From Vermamoeba vermiformis (lineage: Eukaryota), in contig JBEWZL010000308.1 of assembly GCA_045837725.1 (NCBI GenBank), positions 1 through 64,000 on the forward strand: a stretch of DNA of 64,000 bases. Reading direction: 5' to 3'. A model generated the notes under the pieces. That model was not told the DNA's origin. It made no database searches and saw only the letters and a list, made by a program, of their open reading frames with translations. Shown piece after piece: positions 11,021 through 47,009 of this stretch. Position numbers and translations under genes: made by a program. The stretch's first letter is position 1; every line of letters begins with the position of its first letter.

Positions 11021-12520
11021 TTATACGACTTCATCCTCGGGGTTAAATGCGAGATTAGTCTTAATATCTACATCTTGATAGCGCTGATAATCGGCGATTA
11101 ATGTTTCTAAGTTGTCAAACGCTTCTTTAAACTCCATTTGATCCATTCCTTCGCCGGTGTACCACATTAAAAAAGCTCTTCGTTTGTACATCGCGTTAAA
11201 TCTCTGCGAAGTGAACTTTAAATTATCAATTATAGCACTAGTATTCATTAGAGCTGTTCCAGACATGTTGAGATTGATCGGCGGTCTCGAACACAACGAC
11301 GTTTTGATGTTATCAGGGATCCATTCTATAAATGACGCTGAATGCTTGCTTTGCATTTGTGCAATCTGATCGTCTATTTCTCCGCTCGGAATATCTCCGC
11401 GGAAGATACAACTCGCTGCCAAGTGCTTGCCTGATCCATTTTTTGGCAGATTCTCGTGTAGCAGTAAGTTCTCGGGGCTAAACATTTGCGTAGTAATTTC
11501 CTTAAATGTCGTAATATCGGGCTTATTCTCTAGAATGTTGGCTGAGAGTGGAGATCTGGCAGGCACGTAAAAGTGAACGCGAGGGAACGGCGCCAGATTA
11601 AACGACAACTTGCGTAAATCTGATCGAGATTGCGTTCTAAATCGCATGCCACTAGTCACATCGCTTATAATATTCGCAAATAGCGTGTTTACGTGATGCG
11701 TCTGCGGATCCACTACGTTGTATTTCCAGGCAGTTGAATAAGCTGCATCATCGTCTAAATAGACCACCGAGTCTGCATGTTCGATCAAATAGTGCATAGT
11801 TAACACTTGATTATAGGGTGCCACGACTGCTTCTCCACCACGATTAGATCCAGTTGCCGAGTAAGTCCAAAGCATTCGATCTGGATAATCTTCGCGTAGT
11901 TTCATTAGGATTAATGAGCCTAGACCTGCTCCAGTGCCTCCAGCAATACCATGTACGAGTTGAAATCCATGAAGACAATCTGATCGTTCAACTTCGGCTC
12001 GGATTCGGTCCATGAGCAAATCCTCTGCCAATTCTGCGCCTTCTGTGTAGTGTCCTTTGCCCCAATTATTGTGAGCACCGTCAGTGCCTTTAATAAAGTT
12101 ATCTTCGCGATAGTAATGCTGTCTGTTCGCCTTGATGGAATCGAGTTCCGTTGGTTCTACCAAAAAAGAGTCAAATCTATGACACGCAAAAATTACCAGC
12201 GAGATTTGATAAAAATTTTATAAATTACGTTGCGTTATAGAAATTATGCAATACTATTTTAACGTCTTCCGTTAGATCAGGGTTTTTAAACTGAAATAAC
12301 TTTTTAACTTACCTAAATCCACGAGTAATGCACGAGGCACGTATTTATTTTCTTGCTCTTCGTGGAAAAATACACCAATATTTTCATTTAACGAAGCTGG
12401 AGCGTCGTCTTTAAGGACACCATTGGCATCCAAACAATGCTCGTTCTGTAATAGAGCCCAAAATTTGTCTCCAATACGATTTCCCGTTTGACCAAATTGC
12501 AAGTGAATTATATCGCCCAT
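11021..12520 (-). CDS. Divergent beta-tubulin, two exons (intron 12157-12312)
   Basis: GQTGNRIG, YVPRALLVDLEP (across the intron), NNWGKGHYTEGAEL, DLRKL, PFPRVHF, FIEWIPDNIK and RRAFLMWYTGEGMD. Confidence 0.92.
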
Positions 12521-16702: not shown

Positions 16703-17990
16703 ATGTCGTTGTATGTTGGTAGTGTATCGTTCTAACACTCAATAAAAAGGCCTAACATTAAAAAGCGAATAATTATTAATGACGTCACGCTTCTGCAGAT
16801 CGGCCTTTGCATTGGATAATTAATTTAATAATAGTAGATACTAATACTTTTATTGCAGGCAATTTACCTGGGGACTTACGTTCTCGGGAATTGGAGGATT
16901 TGTTCCAAAAATATGGACGGATTCGTTATTGCGAGGTCAAATCCGGAAGAGGTAAGCGCAAAAATATTCTCATTTATTTTTAAATATTAGAAAATTAGCT
17001 AATTTTAAATTTTTTTAAGGTTTTGGCTTTGTCGAGTTCGATGACACTCGCGATGCCGAAGACGCTCTTGACGCATTAGACGGTAAGTCCTTATAATAAT
17101 TACATACTCCCATACAATAATACTGATAGTATATTCCTTTGCAGGTACAAATTTTGAAGGCGGTCGCATCCGCGTAGAGTTTTCTCGTCAACGAAGTAAG
17201 TATTTTTCCTTTTCTTAGCAGTTTACTTTCGCTATTTTAAATTCATATAATACTATGTGCTCGTTAAAGTACTCGAGGAGACGGACTATTTTAAGCATTC
17301 ATAATTAACTTGTTCGTAGTCTCGGATTCACCTGCTACATGACGCGTCATCCACTGAAGAGGGCACACGCGCGTCAAGTTGTTTTAAGTACTTAAATTAT
17401 TTTTATTATAATGCTTATTAAGGCTATTAGTACTTCTCTAAGCCGTTAATTCAAATCCGAATTTTTTTTTTGCGGCTGCATCCGTTGAACTCTGGAAATG
17501 ATACTAATACTTTTTTCTTATAGGCACTGCGTGCTATAAATGTGGTCGTGAAGGTCACTTTGCACGTGAATGCAGAAGATCGAGATCACGAAGCAGAAGT
17601 TATTCTCGATCGCGTTCCAGATCCAAATCTCGTTCGCGCAGTCGCGGTCGTAGACACCGTTCTCGATCTCGCAGCAGATCATACTCACGTGGCTCGAGAT
17701 CTAGAACACGCAGCCGTGATGGCCGTCGACGAAGACGTTCACCTTCTTATTCTAGATCGCCTCGAAGAGGTCGATCCAGATCCAACTCTCGCGAACGAAG
17801 CAGAGAACGCGAGAGATCTCGTTCACCTACTAAGCACGACACTAAGACTAGTGCTGGTGATAAAGACCAAGCTGTTGGCAAGAAGAGATCTCGTTCTCGA
17901 TCTGTTTCAGCCTCACCTGATCGTAAACGTCAACGTACTGACAATGCTACCATTGGTGTAGCGACTACTGAAGACAATACTCATGTTTGA
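16703..17990 (+). CDS. SR splicing factor, RRM + CCHC zinc knuckle + RS domain (SRSF7/9G8/RSZ type)
   Basis: [35 protein letters not shown] and [15 protein letters not shown], then long RS repeats. The ORF track shows the wrong frame for the last exon. Confidence 0.93.
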
Positions 17991-19297: not shown

Positions 19298-19538
19298 ATC
19301 CGTTGAGCAAATTGTATTTTTATCGCTTGTATTATTATATCATTAGGAACATGTACATTAATATCAAATTTAGCATATTGCGCTCGCAAGAATCCGATTC
19401 GCAGCGGAATAAATTTTTCTTCATGAAATTAATCTCCCGCTCGAGATTTGTAATAAACACTCCAACATTAGTTTAAAACTGTACAAAAGCTCCACAAGCG
19501 TTTATTTGAGGAGGGTATTAAGGCCTAATAAGCCTATT

Positions 19539-22500
19539 TTAAGCCAAGAGCTTTGGCCAATCGAATCGTTGGATCAGATCCAACGCGTTGTTTTCTTCGA
19601 GGTACTGCTCGGCTTTGACGGAGATCATAATGAACTCGCTCACAAATTCCGAGAACAGCTCGTTTAGCCACGCGAGCACGAGAACTGTCGCCCACACCGA
19701 TTCACCGAACTGTTCAAACTGAAAAAAACAACTCGTTAGTTCAGATCCAACTTCATCGATTGGAAAATTACTAATATAAAACCAATAGTACTTCTCAATA
19801 CCACTATTAATTACGAAACGACTATCATAATGAAAAAAAAAGTAGCTAAATTAATTCAATTTCTTGTACTCAGATCAAGGGATCAAATCGATGAAAAATA
19901 TTTGAAGTTAGTAATGCCATAGCATATTTGTACTAGTTTAGGCGTACCTCATTTTGGCCAATAAATTCTAGGAATTTCTTGCGATCAATATTGAGCACAG
20001 GCAGAACGTCGTTCAATAACCAATGGCCATCGGGATGTTGCCTGAACAACACTTTGTCCATATCGATCTTATTGCTCATTTTCTTAGTCTTCATCGATAC
20101 GCTTCTATTATTATTATGACTCGTTTCATATTCATTTTCTTCGCCGGTCATTTCCGTCAGCTGATCCCGCAATAGTTGCATTCTTAATGTAGAGTCCTTA
20201 TACGAATCTTCTGATAGGCAATCTAGCTCTGATATTGCATTGTCAAATGCTTCTTTGCCGATCTTAACCGCCCTAAAAAAATAAATTAGAAAAAAACATA
20301 ACTTATTTCCTTTTTTGGCTATTATTCTTATTTTCATTTGCAGGTTAAAGAGTTATTTTTGCAGTTAAATAAATTACTTGGCTATATCTTGCAGGACGTA
20401 TCTACAGAATGAACTGTATTCGTCAGCGATTTGAAGTGTGTCCGGATGTGTCGGCGACAGATCTGCCTTAAACATTTTCTGCACGGCCATGTACTGCTGA
20501 TCGACTTCTATTTTTAGTGCATTGAATTCTATGGGATTGAAGTTTGACATTTTGATGAATTCTTCGTGTTTGGGTTTCAACGTCAATTTTGACACCAAAA
20601 GTTCATTTTTCAGTGAAACATCCGCGTGATTGAGTCCGAGTGACTTGTCATAAGGCTTATATGAGCTAATTATAGCTGCATATTGGTTGTAAAGTGCTTC
20701 GATGTCATTTGACAGCTTTTTCATTACGCCTGAAATTTCTGCAATCTTATCCACGTGCTCTTTCTTGTTATTCGCAGCTAACAATTCTTCTTCTTCATTT
20801 CTGCGCAATCTCAGCATTCTCTGAATCGCGCGCTTGTTCACTGAAAAAAAGTTCAGTGAAACAATTCTTTAGTTTTTGTTTTTCCTAATTTAGTAATCGG
20901 AGTTTTACGTACTGATATGCTCTTCGAATAATTCTCCGAGTTGTTTTTGTTCTTCGTAATTCAACGGTTGAGAATTTGCAATTTTTTCACGGAGATCTGG
21001 TTTGCTGTCGAGCACGGAGGGCGGAACTTCTTTGTATTTTTCTTCTCTATTGTCAACATTGAACTTCGAATTCAATTCTTCGTTGAACTGAGCGCTGGAT
21101 TGACACTCGTAGTTTGGAATTTCAATCGTGAAGCTGATTGGTGGCTCTTCTTCCACGCCCGAAGTATCCACAACCACTGCTGAATAGGTATAATTAGTAC
21201 TATTAGACCACAGACTATATTTTTTCACGTCAATCATTTGTTTTGGCTTGATTGGTTCGGTCGTTTTACCAAGTGTCAAAGTGTCAAAAAATAACGTTAC
21301 GAATAAATTGAATTTGAAAGTGATAGTAATGGTCTTTTAAGAGTTGTTTTTTTGTATGCATGTACGTACCAGGCTCAGGCACGGTCAAATCAAGTCCCTC
21401 CATGATCATCGTAGCATAGCTCGGTGTGCCCGTGTTTTTGATCTCGGTCAGAACGAAGGCAGTGTACAGCGACAGCACGTTGAATGTGAGCGACAAGTTC
21501 ATGATGGACTCGATGGTCTTGCTTGACTTGTTGTGCGATCTCAGGTGCGAGATCAATGTGCCGCACGTGACGGTGTGCAGTCCTGCGCCATCGACATATT
21601 TAGGCATCGTAAGCCTAATTAGGAAATATCAGAATGAGTTATTGCCTTATATGGAAAGTATACTCGGCGGGGGTTGGATACTTACGGTGTCGTAGTGCCA
21701 TTAGATGTCATTTGCAGGGCACGAGTGGGTTTTGAATTCATGAACCCGTAAAAAGTATATTTTCTGTTCGGAGCGAGCGGCAACTCGATTTTCTCTGAAT
21801 ATTCGTTCACTGAACCGAATTCTTCACCCAATGCGGCCAATTTGACCGGCACGCCAAAGTCAAGTGTCACTGATGGAGGACCGAACATGACATCTGTCAC
21901 ACAAAGTGTCAATAAATTTTTGCAAAGATTTGTGGTGCTGACGACTATTGTAGGTTGATCGTGAAATTATTGCAAAGATTGACAGCAAATTGGATCGTGA
22001 AATTATTGCAAAGATTAGTGACTTACGCTGCAACAAGCCAATGATGCGAGACTGCAACGAACTGCTGTGGATGTGTTTGACAATCAACGACTGACCCTTG
22101 CCGTGCAGTGCAATGTTGATCAGATCTTGTTCGACGACATCGCTGCCAATGCCAATGGTGTAAACCGATGATTGGTGCGCGTGGGCATCGATCAGATCAA
22201 AAATTTTGGTTTGATCCGTGAATTGACCGTCTGTCAACAAGAACACCACGCGCGGAATAATCTCGCCCTGAGATACCATTCATGAATCAGTAAAATTGTT
22301 GCAAAGATTCATATATGTTTTTCGTTGTTAGTGTATGAGACTTACGTCTTTTCCTTTTAAGGAAGGTGCTTCTAAGACAGCTTTAAGTGGCTCGTATACT
22401 TTGGTGTCGCACATATTGGCATTCGATTCATCGGAATATTTCATGGCCTCTTGGACTGACTCAGACGTCAACGATTTGCTTTCCTAAAAAGGAAATGTCA

Positions 22501-24126
22501 GGCCAGAGGATTAATTCTCACTGATAGAATTGAATTCTTACGGGCCACAACAAAAAGAATCGATCGCCAAATCGGACAATGTTGAATTTGCTGTTTGACG
22601 GCAATGACGCTAAAAATAGTTTCAACGCTCCTAAACCGGCCAATTTTCAGTATAAAGACCAAATAAGGCAATAATTAATACGAGTACGTACTGCACGCTT
22701 GAGTGATCTTCTCGCCGCTCATGGAGCCAGAACAATCGAGTATGAACACGACTTCGCGCTCTTGTTTCAGTGCTAAGCGTTGTTGCGCCGTCAAAGGGAC
22801 ACCTGAACATAAGAATTGTTATTACTAAAGTGCAAACAACTAATACACAGTAAAACAAGATATACTATCAACATTACATTAAAATATCAAATTTAATTTA
22901 AGCGTGAAAGTTAATTAAATTTCAAAGTTGGTCAGATCCGGTTAGATAAATTTTGCAAATAAATTAACTTGGTAGTTCGGCGTAGTAAAATATTAAGGGG
23001 AGTATGGATATGTCAGTATTGTTTTTAATATTGATACGTACTTAGCGAAGCCATAAAAGCAAAAGGATACTGTTGAAAGTCATTGCACTCTTCGACCACG
23101 TAGCTCGGCTCAGGTTTAGCGGATCTGATGGTCAGATCGATCGATCGGAACACTCGTAGATCTGTTTGTGACACTTCAATGACAGCGGTATTGCCTAAAA
23201 AGGAAATATAAATATTGAAATTTGATTATGATTTTGTTATCGTTCTTCGTCAATTTAAAACGTACCATCAATCTTTGCATCTATTTTATGATTTTTAGAT
23301 GTAATTGAATCGATATTTTCGCTTAATTTAACGGTGATTGGTTGGATCGTAACAGAGTCGCTATAAAAAAATAGATTAGCAAAAGGTTAAATTGTTAAAA
23401 ATAATGATATTACATACCTGTATATCATATTGAGAGAAGGAAAATTAATTTGACGAGTTTGCTGGTCTTTTTCGAAGTTGTGAGGCGCTAACCACGATAA
23501 CTTAACGACAGCGACAGATCCGGGCAGGAAATTGCCTAAAAATCAGCCCAAAATATTAGTTAAATATTAAATTGATTTTTGATAAATTTTTAAGCCATTA
23601 CCAATTGATAAATCAAAGGTGTTTGGGATCTTCTCCGACATTTCGCCCATGTAAGCGGTTCCACCACTAGCAATATGATCGTCATAATTATCTGACGCTA
23701 CATCTTTGGGCTCTAATGTCGCGTTGTAGCATTTACCGTCTGTAACAATAAATTAAAGTCAGATCCAATTTTCGAACTCAGTTTCGAACCAAAAGATGTT
23801 CGGTAAACAAAAACAAATATATCGTTACCTTTATATACTTCGAAGCCTTTTAATTGCGCGTTATATGGCAACGGAAATCCATATTTGACTTCAACGGCGC
23901 AATTGTTTTCATTTTTAAAGACCTACATCAGAATCTTAGACTCAATATTTCCCAAGAAAGAATATTGTAGTATGCATATTACTTAGTTCTTTAACGCGGT
24001 AATTACCTGAATCAGCTCGGTATTCGTTGCAAAATCGTCGATCGAGATCTTAAAATTTCCTTTGACAAGTTTAAGGCCAGCAGCGGTTGCTTGACCGCTC
24101 TGGTCATCTACTTGTGGTTCAAGCAT
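19539..24126 (-). CDS. VIT + vWA domain protein (VWA5A-like) with an internal 14-3-3-like domain
   Basis: VIT segment ([16 protein letters not shown]); vWA with [20 protein letters not shown] and [15 protein letters not shown]-terminal QHPDGHW and [10 protein letters not shown]. The 14-3-3-like insert is at about 20140-20975. Confidence 0.85.
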
Positions 24127-24284
24127 ATTCAAATATCTTTTGATCGAAGATATTAACTTGATGCGTGGTCTTTGACAGATATTTTTGATGAGAATACATC
24201 CTGGTCGAATTTTTTTTTTATTATTTTTTTGTTCGTATCGATAGCAATACGCAACTACAATACTGTGTATCACAAGTATTATTT

Positions 24285-26248
24285 ATGGAACCTAATCAAC
24301 CTGCATACAAAGCACTTTACGCGCACTCGCAGTATTTCCGTATGTTGACCTACTGGCGCAAATGAAAATAGTAAAATAATAATTATAGATTATTGTATTA
24401 TAGATTACGCAAATTTTCCTGATCACTATCAATGCCACGATCTACTGGCAGCACATCCCGAAGTTGAAGAATTAATTTACACAATTGGCGAAAAATGCAT
24501 ATTTGCTCTTAATACCGACCAAAATATTAAGGAGAAGGTACATATATATTTAAAAAATAATAATCAAACAATTTCACGCAATTTAAATTTGAGAAATTAC
24601 GCGGATTTGGTAATTGCATCCGTAGAGATCGAAGCTAATTGATATATATTTAGCGTGTTTATGTACGTGGTCCTAATAATGCTATTCACTTGCCTCAAAC
24701 ACCGATGTCGATTGCCGCGTGCAATAAATACCTCGCTGTTGGTTATCACAACAGCTTGGTCGAATTTTACGACATTAACAAACGAACGTAGGTTATATAT
24801 AGCTATAATAGGACTATATTATAGTACAATTATATTAATCGATATCGTTAAGGTTTTTGTTCTCGTGGGAGGCGCATAGTAGTATGATTAATTACCTCGA
24901 TTTTTATTATGTGGAAGGCAGACCAATTCTATTAACAGCCACAAATTATGACTTGGTGATTGGTAAGATTTAATTTAAATATTATTATTTCCTTTTTAGG
25001 CAATATATATATTACAAAAAAGCTGCTTAAATGGACGAAACTTTTCGGATCCAAATCTGCTGAAACAAATTATTCAATACTAATAATAACTTATTTTAGC
25101 GTACGATGTTGATAACAAACAAATCCTATATTCGGTGCAATTGCCGCAAGCAGCAAATGGAGTCAAGATCTCGCCAGACAATAGAACGGTTGCAGTTACA
25201 AGTGACACTAGCGATGTATATTTTTTTTCACCTCATGACCTTATTGAAAATGGCATGATTAAACTGCAAAAGACAGTCAGAGTGTTCGATCGGCCGATCG
25301 CGCAGTCCATTAGCTGGGATCCCACTTCGAGATACATTGCGCTTGCGAGTGAAGGAGATAAGTCTTGTGTAGTATATGATACTGAAGAAGAGCGAGTTAT
25401 TAGGAGATATGTTACGCCAGTAAGTACCATTTACAAACGAAAACATTTTATCAAAAGTATTTTCTGAGAATTTCTTCCGGTACATTTTACTAGATCTGAA
25501 ACCGTTATGATTTCAGTAGTAATAATATTACTTTTCGTAACTTTGATGTGAAATCACGGAATTAATCCACTATTAAGCCCGTATAATTTTTTGTACCAAA
25601 GATCTGTTTTTTTGTTGCCAGTTATTAACGGTCTTTATTATTTAGTATCCAGTTCGTATTGTCAAATTCAATCACTCAATGGAAGCGCCATTATTAGTGA
25701 TAGGAGAAGATATCAAAACAGTCACAGTTATCGATTACATCCCGGACTTTCAAGATGCGATTGCAGCGAATGACCCAAATATGCCGTGCGTACGACAGAA
25801 TGTTAAGAATCATACTGTACATGGTCCTTATCATGTCTCGGGCATTTGTTTCTCAAAATCTGGAACGAAACTTTATTGGGGTAAGATAATTTTTTTTACT
25901 TCAAAATTCAGATTTAATCTTAAAAATGCCATCAATAATGTACTAATAATAGCAAGGTTATTTAATTGGCAATTTACGTTCTTAATATTTGTTTTTGAGT
26001 GAAATGGAAAAATGATCCGAATCTAATTTTCATTTTTATTAGCGTATTGTGCCACCGCGGAAACGTTCGAAGACGGCGGAGATTTTTACAATATTTCCGA
26101 GAATACAATAGGCTGCGTCAAATCGCTTAAAGATACGTGCATTCAGTTCATCAGATCTACTCTTGCAGAACACCGAGCACATTATAAGGGCATTAGGAAC
26201 CGTGTGACAAAAGAGCTGTTTGAACAGATCAATATTAAGACTACATAA
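24285..26248 (+). CDS. WD40-repeat protein with a C-terminal BC-box/SOCS-box-like motif
   Basis: NGVKISPDNRTVAV, SISWDPTSRYIALAS and GICFSKSGTKLYW. The last exon reads VKSLKDTCIQFIRSTL. Confidence 0.7.
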
Positions 26249-26583: not shown

Positions 26584-27596
26584 TTAAGATCCTCTCCAAG
26601 AATCCGGCAAGATCTCAATCTACAAGGAAGAAAGTTAAATTGTATTCATATCGATATATTAATCGGTTATATAGTTAATTACCCAATAGCCATCAGGGTC
26701 AGCGACGAAAGCAATGCCTTTCATTTTGCCTCCATCCGGTCGTTTCAGGATGTTGACGCCAGCAGCTTCAAGGCGAGCAATAGCAGCATCGACATTAGGC
26801 ACTATAACTGCTATATGACCAAAGCCTCGAGGCTCGGTGTTGCCTGTGTGATAACCAGCGAAATTGGGATCGGATTCGGTGCCCCAGTTGCTACAATATA
26901 GATATTAGCCACAATATCCCTAATAGTATTTAATTATGTACTTAAATATATTATAGGTTATTGACTGATTAATGAGAAATGAAAAAAAGTGGATGTGATC
27001 GGTACCAAAGAACCGCGTAAGTTGCTTAATTTGAAGTAATATATGATTTAATTAATATGATATATTAAAGGTACTTACTGAGTAATTTCGATGCAGTGAG
27101 TGCGCAAGCCAAATACATAAGCGAGTTGATCCTCTTGCGAATTAAAAGTGGGAACTTTCTCGCCAGGCTGCAAATAACCAAAGAAATATAAGCTGAATTT
27201 GCCCCAATCGAAGTCTATCATATAATACGGATTAATATACTGCTAAAATTGCAAAATTTTCAAAAAATATCGCGCGATCCCAAATTAATTTTAATTACAA
27301 CTAAAAATTCAGATATTCAAATAATGCAAGGTCTATTTAAATTATAAAAATTATAGAAAGGTGTCGGTATTCAAATATTAATCAAATTTGGACCAAAAAT
27401 AATTCTGATCAAGCAAAATTTTCTGGTGGATGCTCGTAATGTTTGTTATAATTATGCAATAATATTTACCCAACTTCATAAGCATAGACATGCCCAACAA
27501 ATCGACGTAGAAGTGTTTAGTCTTCTCGGGATCTTTGGCGCGCATCATCGTATGATGCAATCTCCAGCCAGCAGTCGGTGAATTCGCGTCAGTCAT
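26584..27596 (-). CDS. GLO1: Lactoylglutathione lyase (glyoxalase I)
   Basis: [57 protein letters not shown] and [13 protein letters not shown]. Confidence 0.93.
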
Positions 27597-44521: not shown

Positions 44522-47009
44522 TTATTCTTTCTTAAAATGCTCCTCGAGAACTTTTTGCAATATATTCGAGGCAACAGGCTTGGTAACAAAATCATCAAAT
44601 CCAGCCTGCAGAGCGATTGCTTTTTGTTCTATGATTGCATGGGCCGTCAAAGCAATTAACTTAGATTTTAGTCCCATTTTTCTAATTTTTTTTGCGGCTT
44701 CAATACCGTCTGGAAAGCGAATCTCGTTAGTCGACTGGATTTGGTGTTTCAAAACATGAGCTTACCTAAAATAGGCATTTCTAAATCAAGTAATATTACG
44801 GGGTACTTCACTGGATCGGCTTCTATCATATTAATAACTTCTTGGCCGTCATTTGCGATGTCCACGTGGTACCCCAATCTTTCGACCAGTTTTCTAATCA
44901 CTATTTGATTCACCTTATTATCTTCAGCTATTAAAATTAACGGCTTGTCCTTCGTGATCTCCTCATGCGGTTTGCTAATAATCACCTTCTTGCTATCAGA
45001 TTTCTGGATCGTGTGTCGCTGTGTTATTGGCGGGCTTGCGATGACTTTTGTAATGTTCACTCGCGGAGTTGAGCTGTCACCGGTGGTATTAGTCTTCATT
45101 GTCCATATTTCTTCATTATCTACGTTCTCTTTAGTGAAATACATCTTCTCGCCGCTCGATACATTTGTCACGGATCTGCATGGTGTCGTGTCATGTTCTC
45201 CATCTTGTTCGCTTGAATTACACGCTTGGTATGGAATGTAAAGATAGAATGTCGAGCCCTTGTTCTTGCCATGGCTACGGAGGGGTTAGTAACTCGAGGT
45301 ATAAAGCTATACGGTATAGCAAACTTGCCTCTTGACGTGAATAGATCCTTCCATCAAGTGGCACATCTTCTTGCAAATAGCTAAGCCTAGACCAGTACCG
45401 CCTTTTACGCCTTTAGTAGCGGCAAACTATAGACGAGATTAGTGTCATAATAAGGAAAAACCACGTGTCACCAGCGTTGTTTTCTACCTGCTCAAAGGAT
45501 TTGAATATGGATTTGAGTTCATCTGGTTCAAGGCCAATGCCTGTATCTGTAACGCTGAATTTGATGTACTTGTGCTGTTGAGAGTTATGCGCGTGCTCTT
45601 TCTTGCTTTGAAGGGAGGTGCCGTACTTTTTGATTCGTTCTGCGTCTTTGACTGACACGCGGATGGTCACGCTGCCACTGTTGGTGAATTTGATCGCGTT
45701 GGACAGTAAGTTAATAAGGATTTGCTGCAGTCTGAAAGCATCTGAATAGAAGTCGCAGATCTTGCCTCGGATGACCACTTTGAACGACAGTGCCTTTCTA
45801 TTCATTAAGGGCGATATTACTTCGAACGAGCGCGTCAAAAGTCCGCTCAAATTGACTGGTTCGCGCACGAGCTTCATTTTATCGGCCTCCATTTTTGAAA
45901 AATCTAGGATGTCGTTGATAGTCGCCTAATTTAAGAGTATATTAATCTCCGCGAAGATTCGAGTAATATTCCGCCATTGTAGGGTTAATTCATAAGAAAC
46001 ATTTCGTGTGCAGGCTTACCAGCAAGTGCTGCGAGCAAGTTTCGGCAATTTCTAGTAAGTGTTCGTAATCAACGTCGAGCCTTATAGATTTGAGCAAGTC
46101 AATGGCGCCAATAATTCCTGAAAGCGGCGTACGTAGTTCATGACTCATTCTGCAACAATAAAAATTATTAATAAGTTTGCCTAAATAGGAAAGAGACCAC
46201 AGTTTACTCCAATGACCGTTATAATAAGAATTTGTATTAAAATAACGTCGATTCGTTTGGTGCTTACCTGCATAAAAAGTCGGTTTTGAGTTGGCTTGCT
46301 TTGGCGAAGTAATCTTGAGTGTCAGAATTCTTCTTATAATATACAAACGCCATTAATGATACACCGACCGTTTGATATTGCGCATGGTACCATAGGTAAT
46401 CAAGCATCGGTTTCGGTAAGGTTCCGAAATCCAAAAAGTGCATCCCGTTTAGTTCCATTAAATAGAACGACGTAACTACGATATAGTTGAGCACGAAAAC
46501 TGTCATAATAGCATATCCATTTCCGAGGAGTAAAACAGCGCAGTAGAGAAAGCCGTCGGATCTTAGAAGAGAAATGAAAAATCCTCCGTGTCGGAACGTT
46601 GCCACGCACGATGCTATATATAATATGGCGTAAAGGAAGTAGCCTTAATGACATTATTAGCAAATACCAAACTAAAGGTTGTGCGGTGCTTACCCGAACT
46701 AGAGAGATCTAACCGCAACCAATACATTATTAAACCGGCGCACACTGTCATTATTAAAACTCCACTAACTTCTAAATAGTGTCCATAGCTCTCGAAGAAC
46801 GGTACTCGTAGCGCTATCATTACTAAATAAAGCGACATTATGTAAATGATCCGCAAGTACGCCAGGACCAGAGTTCGGTGCGTGTGTCTCGCTTTATCAT
46901 CGGTTCCAAACTCGTCTGTGCCATTTCGTTGATGAAATAAAGTTGTCAGTCGCGTTGCAATACGATCTTCATTCGTGCGGAGAAAAGTAAACGGATCGGT
47001 AAACTTCAT
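44522..47009 (-). CDS. Membrane-bound hybrid histidine kinase (TM - HisKA - HATPase - receiver)
   Basis: H-box MSHELRTPL, N-box QILINLLSNAIKFT, DTGIG, GTGLGL and receiver AEDNKVNQ...LLDLEMP...ALTA...TKP. Hydrophobic N-terminal helices. Confidence 0.93.
45275..45328 (-). other. GC-AG intron in the histidine kinase gene
   Basis: Donor AG|GCAAGT, branch TACTAAC and acceptor CCGTAG. Removal restores EGSIHVKS|HGKNKGSTF. Confidence 0.85.

Follow-up and report, generated by a model that had tools for sequence, protein, structure and literature searches.

A VIT-vWA protein of Vermamoeba vermiformis with an inserted 14-3-3-like module and an altered ligand groove

The VIT-vWA/14-3-3 locus

The window analysed here is a stretch of 64,000 nucleotides of Vermamoeba vermiformis DNA (assembly GCA_045837725.1, contig JBEWZL010000308.1, positions 1 to 64,000), whose minus strand carries, at 19539..24126, a gene for a VIT-vWA protein with a 14-3-3-like module built into it. 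A splice-site scan together with translation gives a coding sequence of 2985 nt in 16 exons, which begins with an ATG at 24126 and specifies 994 amino acids and a stop. The 15 introns, all of the canonical GT..AG type and 57-239 nt long, join the minus-strand open frames found from 24282 to 19539. For exon 8, an acceptor at 22610 was discarded in favour of one at 22631, since it left seven residues missing in the alignment with relatives. Over its whole length the resulting model is 74% identical to P0001 (954 residues aligned), a 960-residue open reading frame of a EukProt Trinity transcript marked as complete, and 70% identical to P0002 (990 residues aligned), a JGI protein of 1001 residues.

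The VIT domain (residues 25-131, exons 1-4; 23495..24054, minus strand) is recognized by Pfam in the relatives, with 77.2 bits in P0001 and 70.1 bits in P0002, and was mapped from them onto the window model. The vWA domain (residues 256-420; 22064..22755, minus strand) is found by Pfam both in the window, where exon 10 alone reaches 25.6 bits for VWA (cutoff 23.8), and in the relatives, where VWA_3 scores 69.7 bits (P0001) and 77.8 bits (P0002). A preliminary description of the locus had called its metal-ion-dependent adhesion site (MIDAS) intact, and the site is indeed complete: the DxSxS motif stands at residue 262 (codons 22723-22737), and the Thr and the Asp of the LTDG motif agree with the consensus of alignment A4. 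The 14-3-3-like module (residues 633-872, exons 13-15; 20137..21033, minus strand) extends from helix B to helix I, as delimited by Pfam, profile search, hhalign and a structural model of P0002. Profile searches bear out all three predicted domains, which follow one another in the order VIT, VWA, 14-3-3 in both P0001 and P0002; in the window, VWA is detected in exon 10 and the Pfam 14-3-3 family (PF00244) in exon 15.

The protein ends in a VWA5A-type C-terminal domain (residues 893-993, end of exon 15 and exon 16; 19545..20076, minus strand), which is defined by its matches to other C-termini. The tail of the window model matches the C-termini of VIT-vWA proteins without 14-3-3 (E values of 9.5e-7 to 6e-5 in a 15-sequence database), and the P0002 tail (residues 895-1001) matches the extreme C-termini of such proteins (E values of 8.6e-9 to 8.5e-6 in a 28-sequence database). 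The proteins matched are P0165 and P0169, both named VWA5A at NCBI, together with P0153, P0155, P0152, P0159 and P0160. Since homology to the C-termini of VIT-vWA proteins without a 14-3-3 domain extends over the last ~100 residues, the 14-3-3 segment is inserted, and the earlier claim that the VWA5A-type C-terminus resumes behind it holds. Helices H-I of the module and the start of the C-terminal tail are both coded by exon 15. No hydrophobic leader is seen by inspection in the first 60 residues, and VIT strands set in at about residue 19, so that a signal peptide seems to be absent.

The full-length AlphaFold model of P0002 (predicted local distance difference test (pLDDT) of 78.5, predicted template modelling score (pTM) of 0.63) has a VIT-vWA core that is confident as far as residue 556 and whose best structural match is ITIH1 (6fpy; E value of 4.5e-26 over 611 columns), and a helical C-terminal domain (pLDDT 83-93); low-confidence linkers precede (residues 560-638) and follow (residues 875-899) the module. 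The fourth-best match of this core in the PDB is chain 4s of 9e5c (E value of 2.4e-20 over 643 columns). Entry 9e5c is the Trypanosoma brucei flagellar doublet 96-nm repeat, and a VIT-vWA protein therefore belongs to an axoneme structure.

Upstream of the module, the window protein, P0001, P0002 and the fragment P0017 share a conserved SFTIEIPxYE-type motif with FN.EL..K after it. The motif lies within the linker of ~80 residues between the vWA core and the module, where pLDDT is below 50 in both the full-length and the domain model of P0002, and may serve for binding or as a latch. A candidate reading of the motif as the strand of VITpt2, a segment of the Dictyostelium Vwa1 family, finds no support in the full-length model, which instead puts a strand at P0002 residues 551-555 and leaves the motif in the low-confidence linker.

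Exon 13 (20913-21179, minus strand) encodes this linker with its motif and, further on, helix B together with the initial half of helix C. Intron 13 (20841-20912) separates it from exon 14 (20378-20840), and intron 14 (20273-20377) lies between exon 14 and exon 15 (19948-20272), exons 14 and 15 being placed by the splice-site scan and both introns having GT..AG ends on the same minus strand; intron 15 (19719-19947, minus strand) falls within the coding sequence of the C-terminal domain. The junction of exons 13 and 14 splits a Met codon after its first base and that of exons 14 and 15 splits a codon after its second, and the frame is unbroken through both. The three in-phase 14-3-3 exons first reported inside the VIT-vWA gene thus join in frame across GT..AG introns, with a homology far above chance for the C-terminal part. 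The interval first given to them, 20140-20975, covers helices C-I; by structural alignment the module starts earlier, at 21033, with helix B.

The locus is one gene, in which the 14-3-3 module is inserted in a VIT-vWA protein and is not a neighbouring gene. When longer proteins were searched with exon 14 by a word index, three of 443 candidates matched at E ≤ 0.001, namely P0001 (70% identical in this exon), P0002 and the 283-residue fragment P0003, with exon 14 identities of 64-70% between the window and relatives, and the assembled mRNA of P0001 spans the VIT start through the module. On window positions 19300-24400, RNA-seq runs X11-X13 match only 20913-20952 (40 bases, 95-99%), and in 12/16, 11/15 and 11/14 reads of the three runs the match ends precisely with the final base of exon 13 (20913). 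Beyond this point the reads carry 30 letters, 25 of which agree with the start of exon 14 and whose translation gives the P0001 residues at the junction; a diverged relative therefore splices intron 13 as predicted. The contigs from run X6, 10 pieces of which 4 are ≥99% alike, fall on exons only, including exons 13, 14, 15 and 16; introns 1, 2 and 11 are spliced out of them, and one end hangs loose where intron 8 borders its exon. In the environmental fragments P0005, P0007 and P0012, helices H-I are joined to the tail in one exon, as in the window.

It was also observed that environmental gene calls run into introns at the window positions, P0005, P0007 and P0012 into intron 15, P0003 into intron 14 and P0017 into intron 13; since they read into them exactly there, the positions of introns 13, 14 and 15 are conserved among relatives. 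Runs X11-X13 bear the same species label as the DNA that matches the window best; outside the 40 matching bases they are unlike the window. Their sequence agrees with P0001, and the label seems to cover clearly diverged lineages.

One point speaks against a single gene: no read or contig of the near-identical organism, the window's own, bridges exons 12/13, 13/14 or 14/15. The fusion would then be an artefact, either a separate 14-3-3-like gene nested in the locus or an assembly chimera. Against this stand the same domain order in transcript P0001, in the JGI protein P0002 and in the fragments P0005, P0007 and P0012, the RNA reads of a relative that cross the exon 13/14 junction, the continuous frames and the VWA5A-type tail that follows the module, and we regard an artefact as extremely improbable.

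Fold and ligand groove of the module

Exon 15 alone matches PF00244 at 38.6 bits (cutoff 33.2) over profile positions 182-220, and the relatives match it at 54.1 bits (P0001, positions 149-220 of 223) and 66.7 bits (P0002, positions 141-220 of 223); the family match is significant and partial, being confined to the last third of the profile. Searched against solved PDB chains, the profile of the window's family aligns with residues 146-237 of 14-3-3 zeta, from the end of helix F to helix I (E values of 4e-24 to 1e-23). Default hhalign against 12 canonical 14-3-3 proteins likewise aligns only the last 89 columns, at 45% identity (E value of 1.4e-32). The N-terminal half of the module goes undetected by these default methods, and exon 14 alone gives no 14-3-3 match in Pfam, only sub-threshold ones to Clusterin and TipAS. 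Relaxed or global hhalign extends the alignment to 230-233 columns, with posteriors of 6-8 of 9 in helix C and of 0-2 in helices D and E.

An AlphaFold2 model of P0002 residues 599-885, computed from an 11-row family alignment (mean pLDDT of 73.4, pTM of 0.68), shows seven long helices (39, 34, 20, 25, 17, 21 and 21 residues) after a short helical element. When this domain model is compared with the PDB by Foldseek, only 14-3-3 chains appear among the matches listed (best E value of 9.4e-9, template modelling score by target length of 0.60-0.76). VIA-align on 986 Foldseek 14-3-3 chains gives, among the matches listed, Z values of 20.6-21.8 and a root mean square deviation of 2.3-3.0 Å over 201-218 residues; all 50 of the 50 matches listed are 14-3-3, and model residues 39-277 typically pair with zeta residues 17-230. 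The cup of helices that forms the 14-3-3 ligand groove is thus present in the predicted model of this 70%-identical relative. Helix A has no counterpart in VIA-align, where matches typically start from about zeta residue 17, and pLDDT stays under 50 for the upstream residues in either model. Between helices E and F, the loop is ~10 residues longer than in canonical 14-3-3. In the ESM Atlas, the best features score 0.89 to 14-3-3 clusters, which is a lead only.

The preliminary description had the module aligned by eye along most of 14-3-3. The significant sequence match runs only from the end of helix F to helix I, the helix-C register is regained with relaxed hhalign, and the full extent from B to I is seen in the model. 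As judged from sequence comparison and modelling, the module is a genuine 14-3-3 domain, though a degenerate one, and descends from a true 14-3-3 protein.

The model shows helices C and D as long and with good confidence (pLDDT ~78-85), and the available text of a Dictyostelium Vwa1 study proposes homodimerisation or autoinhibition for the family (PMC10539598). Both observations would suit a dimerisation or 14-3-3-recruiting unit, which would pair, through helices C and D, with a second copy of itself or with a monomer of canonical 14-3-3 and bring the VIT-vWA protein to 14-3-3 clients. Such a role is improbable, as helix A, half of the canonical dimer interface, is without an aligned counterpart and the residues upstream are of low confidence.

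Groove positions are named here in zeta numbering, which from residue 146 on was read from the solved-chain alignment and for the residues of helices C and E is the one we take to be standard. Glu669 (codon 20923..20925, minus strand) stands at Lys49 and Arg676 (codon 20830..20832, minus strand) at the retained Arg56, both placed by the hhalign helix-C register (posterior 6-8), which for Glu669 is joined by the helix start in the model. Asp812 and Glu813 (codons 20419..20424, minus strand) stand at Leu172 and Asn173 by a high-confidence hidden Markov model (HMM) alignment to solved zeta chains, and the HMM alignment to those chains also places Gln864 (codon 20161..20163, minus strand) at Asn224. 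In the order window, P0001, P0002, the residues in the N-terminal half are E, E, Q at K49; K, K, K at R55; R, R, R at R56; and R, R, K at R60. Those further on are D, D, D at L172; E, Q, H at N173; S, Q, Q at V176; Y, H, Y at E180; L, L, L at L216; R, T, I at I217; L, L, M at L220; Q, Q, Q at N224; E, E, E at L227; and M, M, M at W228.

In canonical 14-3-3, according to the available part of PMC4409382, R56, R127 and Y128, and commonly K49, hydrogen-bond the phosphate, while N173 and N224 hold the peptide backbone. Both asparagines are replaced in the window protein, P0001 and P0002, and of the phosphate-binding set only R56 is kept. K49 is replaced by Glu in three of the four family sequences that cover the position and by Gln in P0002. 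There are no Arg residues in the window protein between helices D and F, where the only Tyr residues sit in the D-E loop, and the R127-Y128 pair is therefore absent in every register. The replacements K49E, N173E and N224Q and the retained R56 were already named in the preliminary description and are confirmed by hhalign and the HMM alignment to zeta. The register R127E/Y128F that it proposed is not supported: the helix-E posterior is 0-1, several registers are possible, and only the absence of Arg and of a helix-E Tyr is firm. Global hhalign, the helix limits of the model and the spacing of an LK......SKL pattern each suggest a different register for helix E, and P0014, taken as a bridge in BLAST and a local HMM, extends the alignment with few identities.

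Other groove residues are fixed in the family, with Asp at L172 (five of five sequences, the window and P0001-P0004), Gln at N224, Glu or Asp at L227 and Met at W228. The module had been called charge-reversed, a description that fits K49E in three of four sequences, Asp at L172 and Glu at L227; it does not fit the equivalents of R55, R56 and R60, which stay basic.

The explanation we favour, and hold to be fairly probable, is that a single gene at this locus encodes a cytoplasmic VIT-vWA protein of the VWA5A/Vwa1 type, with a 14-3-3-derived cup that has lost canonical phospho-reading and would serve as a phosphate-independent binding surface or scaffold. The 14-3-3-derived domain sits in the variable stretch that separates the VIT-vWA core from the conserved C-terminal domain, and as modelled it keeps the cup from helix B to I without a recognisable helix A. 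Most of the residues that hold phosphopeptides are lost (K49 to E, no helix-E Arg-Tyr, N173 to E, N224 to Q), along with L172 (to D), L227 (to E) and W228 (to M). While the gene structure, the fusion, the homology, the modelled fold and these substitutions are shown, it is less certain that phospho-Ser/Thr motifs would no longer be read in the canonical way. We infer a phosphate-independent role because the binding residues are lost while the fold is conserved; most likely, a helical surface or scaffold would tether a partner, or a segment of the protein itself, to the VIT-vWA head with its MIDAS. The available text of PMC2173313 reports that K49E 14-3-3 zeta keeps its fold and dimerisation and leaves Raf and many other ligands unbound.

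Several points weigh against this explanation. The evidence for the fold is a prediction for the 70%-identical relative P0002 and not for the window protein, AlphaFold may have been biased towards the 14-3-3 fold by the strong homology of the C-terminal third, and confidence is lowest around helix E (domain model, pLDDT 58-71; full-length model, below 50). K49A alone has a minor effect for some peptides, as stated in the accessible portion of PMC4409382. The R55, R56 and R60 equivalents remain basic, and one possible helix-E register places a family-invariant Lys at R127, so that some anion or phosphate binding is possible.

These basic residues are the ground for a rival explanation, in which the module would still read phosphate with altered specificity, R55, R56, R60 and a helix-E Lys taking the place of K49 and R127. 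In its favour, basic equivalents of R55 (as Lys), R56 and R60 are kept in the window protein, P0001 and P0002; the LK......SKL pattern, aligned to the K120...R127 spacing, puts the invariant Lys at R127; and the loss of K49 to Ala is tolerated for some peptides (PMC4409382, in the part available). We consider it unlikely: the residue at K49 is Glu in three of four sequences, and K49E abolishes ligand binding by zeta (PMC2173313, as far as its text was available); both backbone asparagines are gone; the groove carries Asp at L172 and Glu at L227; and the posterior of the helix-E register is only 0-1.

Distribution and comparison with known proteins

An exhaustive HMMER search with the module profile among 1.84 billion representatives found 3318 proteins at E ≤ 0.001, 8 of them at E ≤ 1e-30. 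Among the 151 of the 3318 that were listed, the window's family is represented by P0001, P0003 and the fragments P0004, P0005, P0007, P0012 and P0017. A Pfam scan covered 32 of the 151 listed proteins, picked by rank or length, and comprised 25 canonical, tandem or evidently chimeric 14-3-3 proteins (two of which resemble two-hybrid vector fusions), 5 family fragments and 2 distant fusions. The latter are P0056, with VWA_3 and 14-3-3 positions 137-223, and P0014, with a PARP4-like post-vWA region and 14-3-3 positions 81-223. Of the 7998 proteins scored in a search with full-length P0002, 28 were VIT-vWA proteins with E ≤ 1e-5, and among these 28 PF00244 is found only in P0001 and P0002. A search with P0014 among longer proteins found six, including P0180, a PARP4-like protein of Ptychodera flava with the order BRCT, PARP, VIT, VWA, 14-3-3 (positions 124-217) and an actin-like end. 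Within the 64-kb window, the VIT-vWA locus is the only 14-3-3-like sequence.

The protein collection also holds 14-3-3 domains fused to Gal4 DNA-binding or dimerisation parts, which are probable two-hybrid constructs, tandem double 14-3-3 proteins, and probable gene-model chimeras with integrin alpha and TCP-1. The artefact-type or tandem entries are P0141, P0143, P0006, P0009, P0011, P0016, P0074 and P0116; in view of such vector fusions, tandems and chimeras, multi-domain 14-3-3 matches need to be checked singly.

For a FastTree phylogeny over 81 columns, 156 domain rows were reduced to 151 (five with more than 8 gaps were dropped) and then to 122 unique ones, P0003 and P0005 having failed the coverage filter. 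The window module, P0001, P0002, P0014, P0056 and P0180 fall in one clade of 7 of the 122 tips (Shimodaira-Hasegawa-like support of 0.85), which suggests, at the level of sequence, that the 14-3-3 modules linked to VIT-vWA share one origin. The seventh tip, P0013, is a divergent and apparently unfused fragment, and with 81 columns long-branch attraction is possible; both count against such an origin. Descent from the same ancient fusion as the 14-3-3 of PARP4-like VIT-vWA proteins would be a less certain part of the favoured explanation.

A wider proposal, which we put forward tentatively and hold to be doubtful, is that the PARP4-like and VWA5A-like VIT-vWA proteins of Amorphea might share an ancient, dedicated pseudo-14-3-3. 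Its groove, acidic at K49, L172 and L227 and without Asn173 and Asn224, would have been rebuilt for a non-phosphorylated, probably basic ligand or for an internal latch such as the SFTIEIPxYE motif or the C-terminal domain. If this were true, the shared pseudo-14-3-3 would give a first lead as to what the VIT-vWA heads couple to in VWA5A and vault PARP.

The conservation of the module also bears on whether it might be a decaying relic that acts as a spacer only. The N-terminal half has diverged past default sequence detection, and close relatives differ from one another at N173 and I217 of the groove, as a relic would lead one to expect. Against this, helices F-I are still 45% identical to canonical 14-3-3, the residues at L172, N224, L227 and W228 are family-specific and fixed, and related modules persist in distant lineages (P0014, P0056 and P0180), which makes a relic very improbable.

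To our knowledge, 14-3-3 proteins are almost always free-standing phospho-readers, and we know of no mechanism for VWA5A/BCSC-1 or for the VIT-vWA part of vault PARP. A 14-3-3 homologue built into a VIT-vWA protein and stripped of phosphate-binding residues would be a natural experiment on other uses of the cup, and the module may hint at which partners VIT-vWA proteins have.

The module may be compared with canonical 14-3-3 proteins, for example zeta (PDB 1qjb and 5d2d), with which it shares homology over helices F-I, the modelled B-I cup and the conserved R56 and L216/L220. It differs in being embedded in a 994-residue protein, in the replacement of K49, N173, N224, L172, L227 and W228, and in the lack of a helix-E Arg. 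A 14-3-3-shaped helical domain within a larger protein is also found in SMG5, SMG6 and SMG7 (EST1 family), and the available part of PMC6739308 reports phosphoserine-independent functions for SMG7. The window module, for its part, is a homologue of true 14-3-3 at the level of sequence, with a PF00244 match.

In the available text of PMC10539598 (section 22), the Dictyostelium Vwa1 family is laid out as VIT, Hyb1a, vWFA, Hyb1b, three helices, VITpt2, a heterogeneous region and a C-terminal domain of ~101 residues that is shared with human VWA5A. The window protein has in common with Vwa1 and VWA5A/BCSC-1 the VIT domain, a vWA domain with MIDAS, a β-rich post-vWA region, helices with a strand (model residues 551-555), a terminal helical domain of ~100 residues and an N-terminus unlike a signal peptide. 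In contrast to them, it has ~240 extra residues, the 14-3-3-like module, in the heterogeneous region before the C-terminal domain; the term 14-3-3 does not occur in the available text of the Vwa1 paper (PMC10539598).

A closer precedent for the domain order is given by the PARP4-like 'third type' proteins of Perina et al. 2014 (DNA Repair 23:4; PMC4245714, section 3.1.2), which combine VIT and vWA with an appended 14-3-3 and are listed there in four amoebae, lancelet, sea urchin and Capsaspora. Going by that section, VIT, vWA and the 14-3-3-homologous segment follow in the same order as in the window protein. In the PARP4-like P0180, the 14-3-3 match is C-terminal only (positions 124-217), Asn173 and Gly169 are lost, and the domain groups with the window module in the tree. 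The window protein differs from the PARP4-like form in having neither BRCT nor PARP catalytic domain, the window and P0001 reading frames both starting at VIT; in tblastn, P0180 residues 1-640 and P0182 residues 1-660 gave no match to the 64-kb window at E up to 1. Moreover, P0180 ends in an actin-like piece, whereas the window protein ends in the VWA5A C-terminal domain.

The architecture claimed as new is thus already in print in its PARP-bearing form, as the available section of Perina et al. 2014 (PMC4245714) shows. The state of the binding groove in PARP4-like 14-3-3 domains is not discussed in the part of that paper available. Literature on 14-3-3 with VWA5A, VIT, von Willebrand or PARP4 yielded no PARP-less VIT-vWA-14-3-3 protein with this C-terminal domain and no degenerate groove, figures and supplements, which might show PARP-less forms, lying outside its scope. 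The coccolith paper PMC11685980 was considered as a precedent for the fusion and rejected, the 14-3-3 and von Willebrand domains being in separate proteins there. The window protein is a PARP-less variant of the VIT-vWA-14-3-3 arrangement that ends in a VWA5A tail, and this form and the degeneration of its groove appear undescribed in the literature covered. As a refinement of a known architecture that adds no new kind of system, the finding is a moderate gain.

Other genes in the window

A WD40/β-propeller gene (24349-25467, plus strand) starts on the strand opposite to the VIT-vWA gene and ~220 bp upstream of its start codon, an arrangement which suggests that region 24127-24348 is a divergent promoter shared by the two genes. 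Beyond it, at 26659-26904 on the minus strand, lies an exon of the glyoxalase family. On the other side of the locus, an exon at 17508-17990 (plus strand) with a CCHC zinc knuckle (Pfam, 30.2 bits) and, behind it, a long Arg/Ser-rich tract resembles a zinc-knuckle SR splicing factor, judging by its composition and Pfam match. Open frames at 44749-45925 (minus strand) that contain the ATPase domain of histidine kinases and a response-regulator receiver domain probably belong to a hybrid histidine kinase, a type of protein that points to a eukaryote other than an animal. At 11021-12217 (minus strand), a 398-residue open frame matches Tubulin (110 bits) and Tubulin_C (82 bits).

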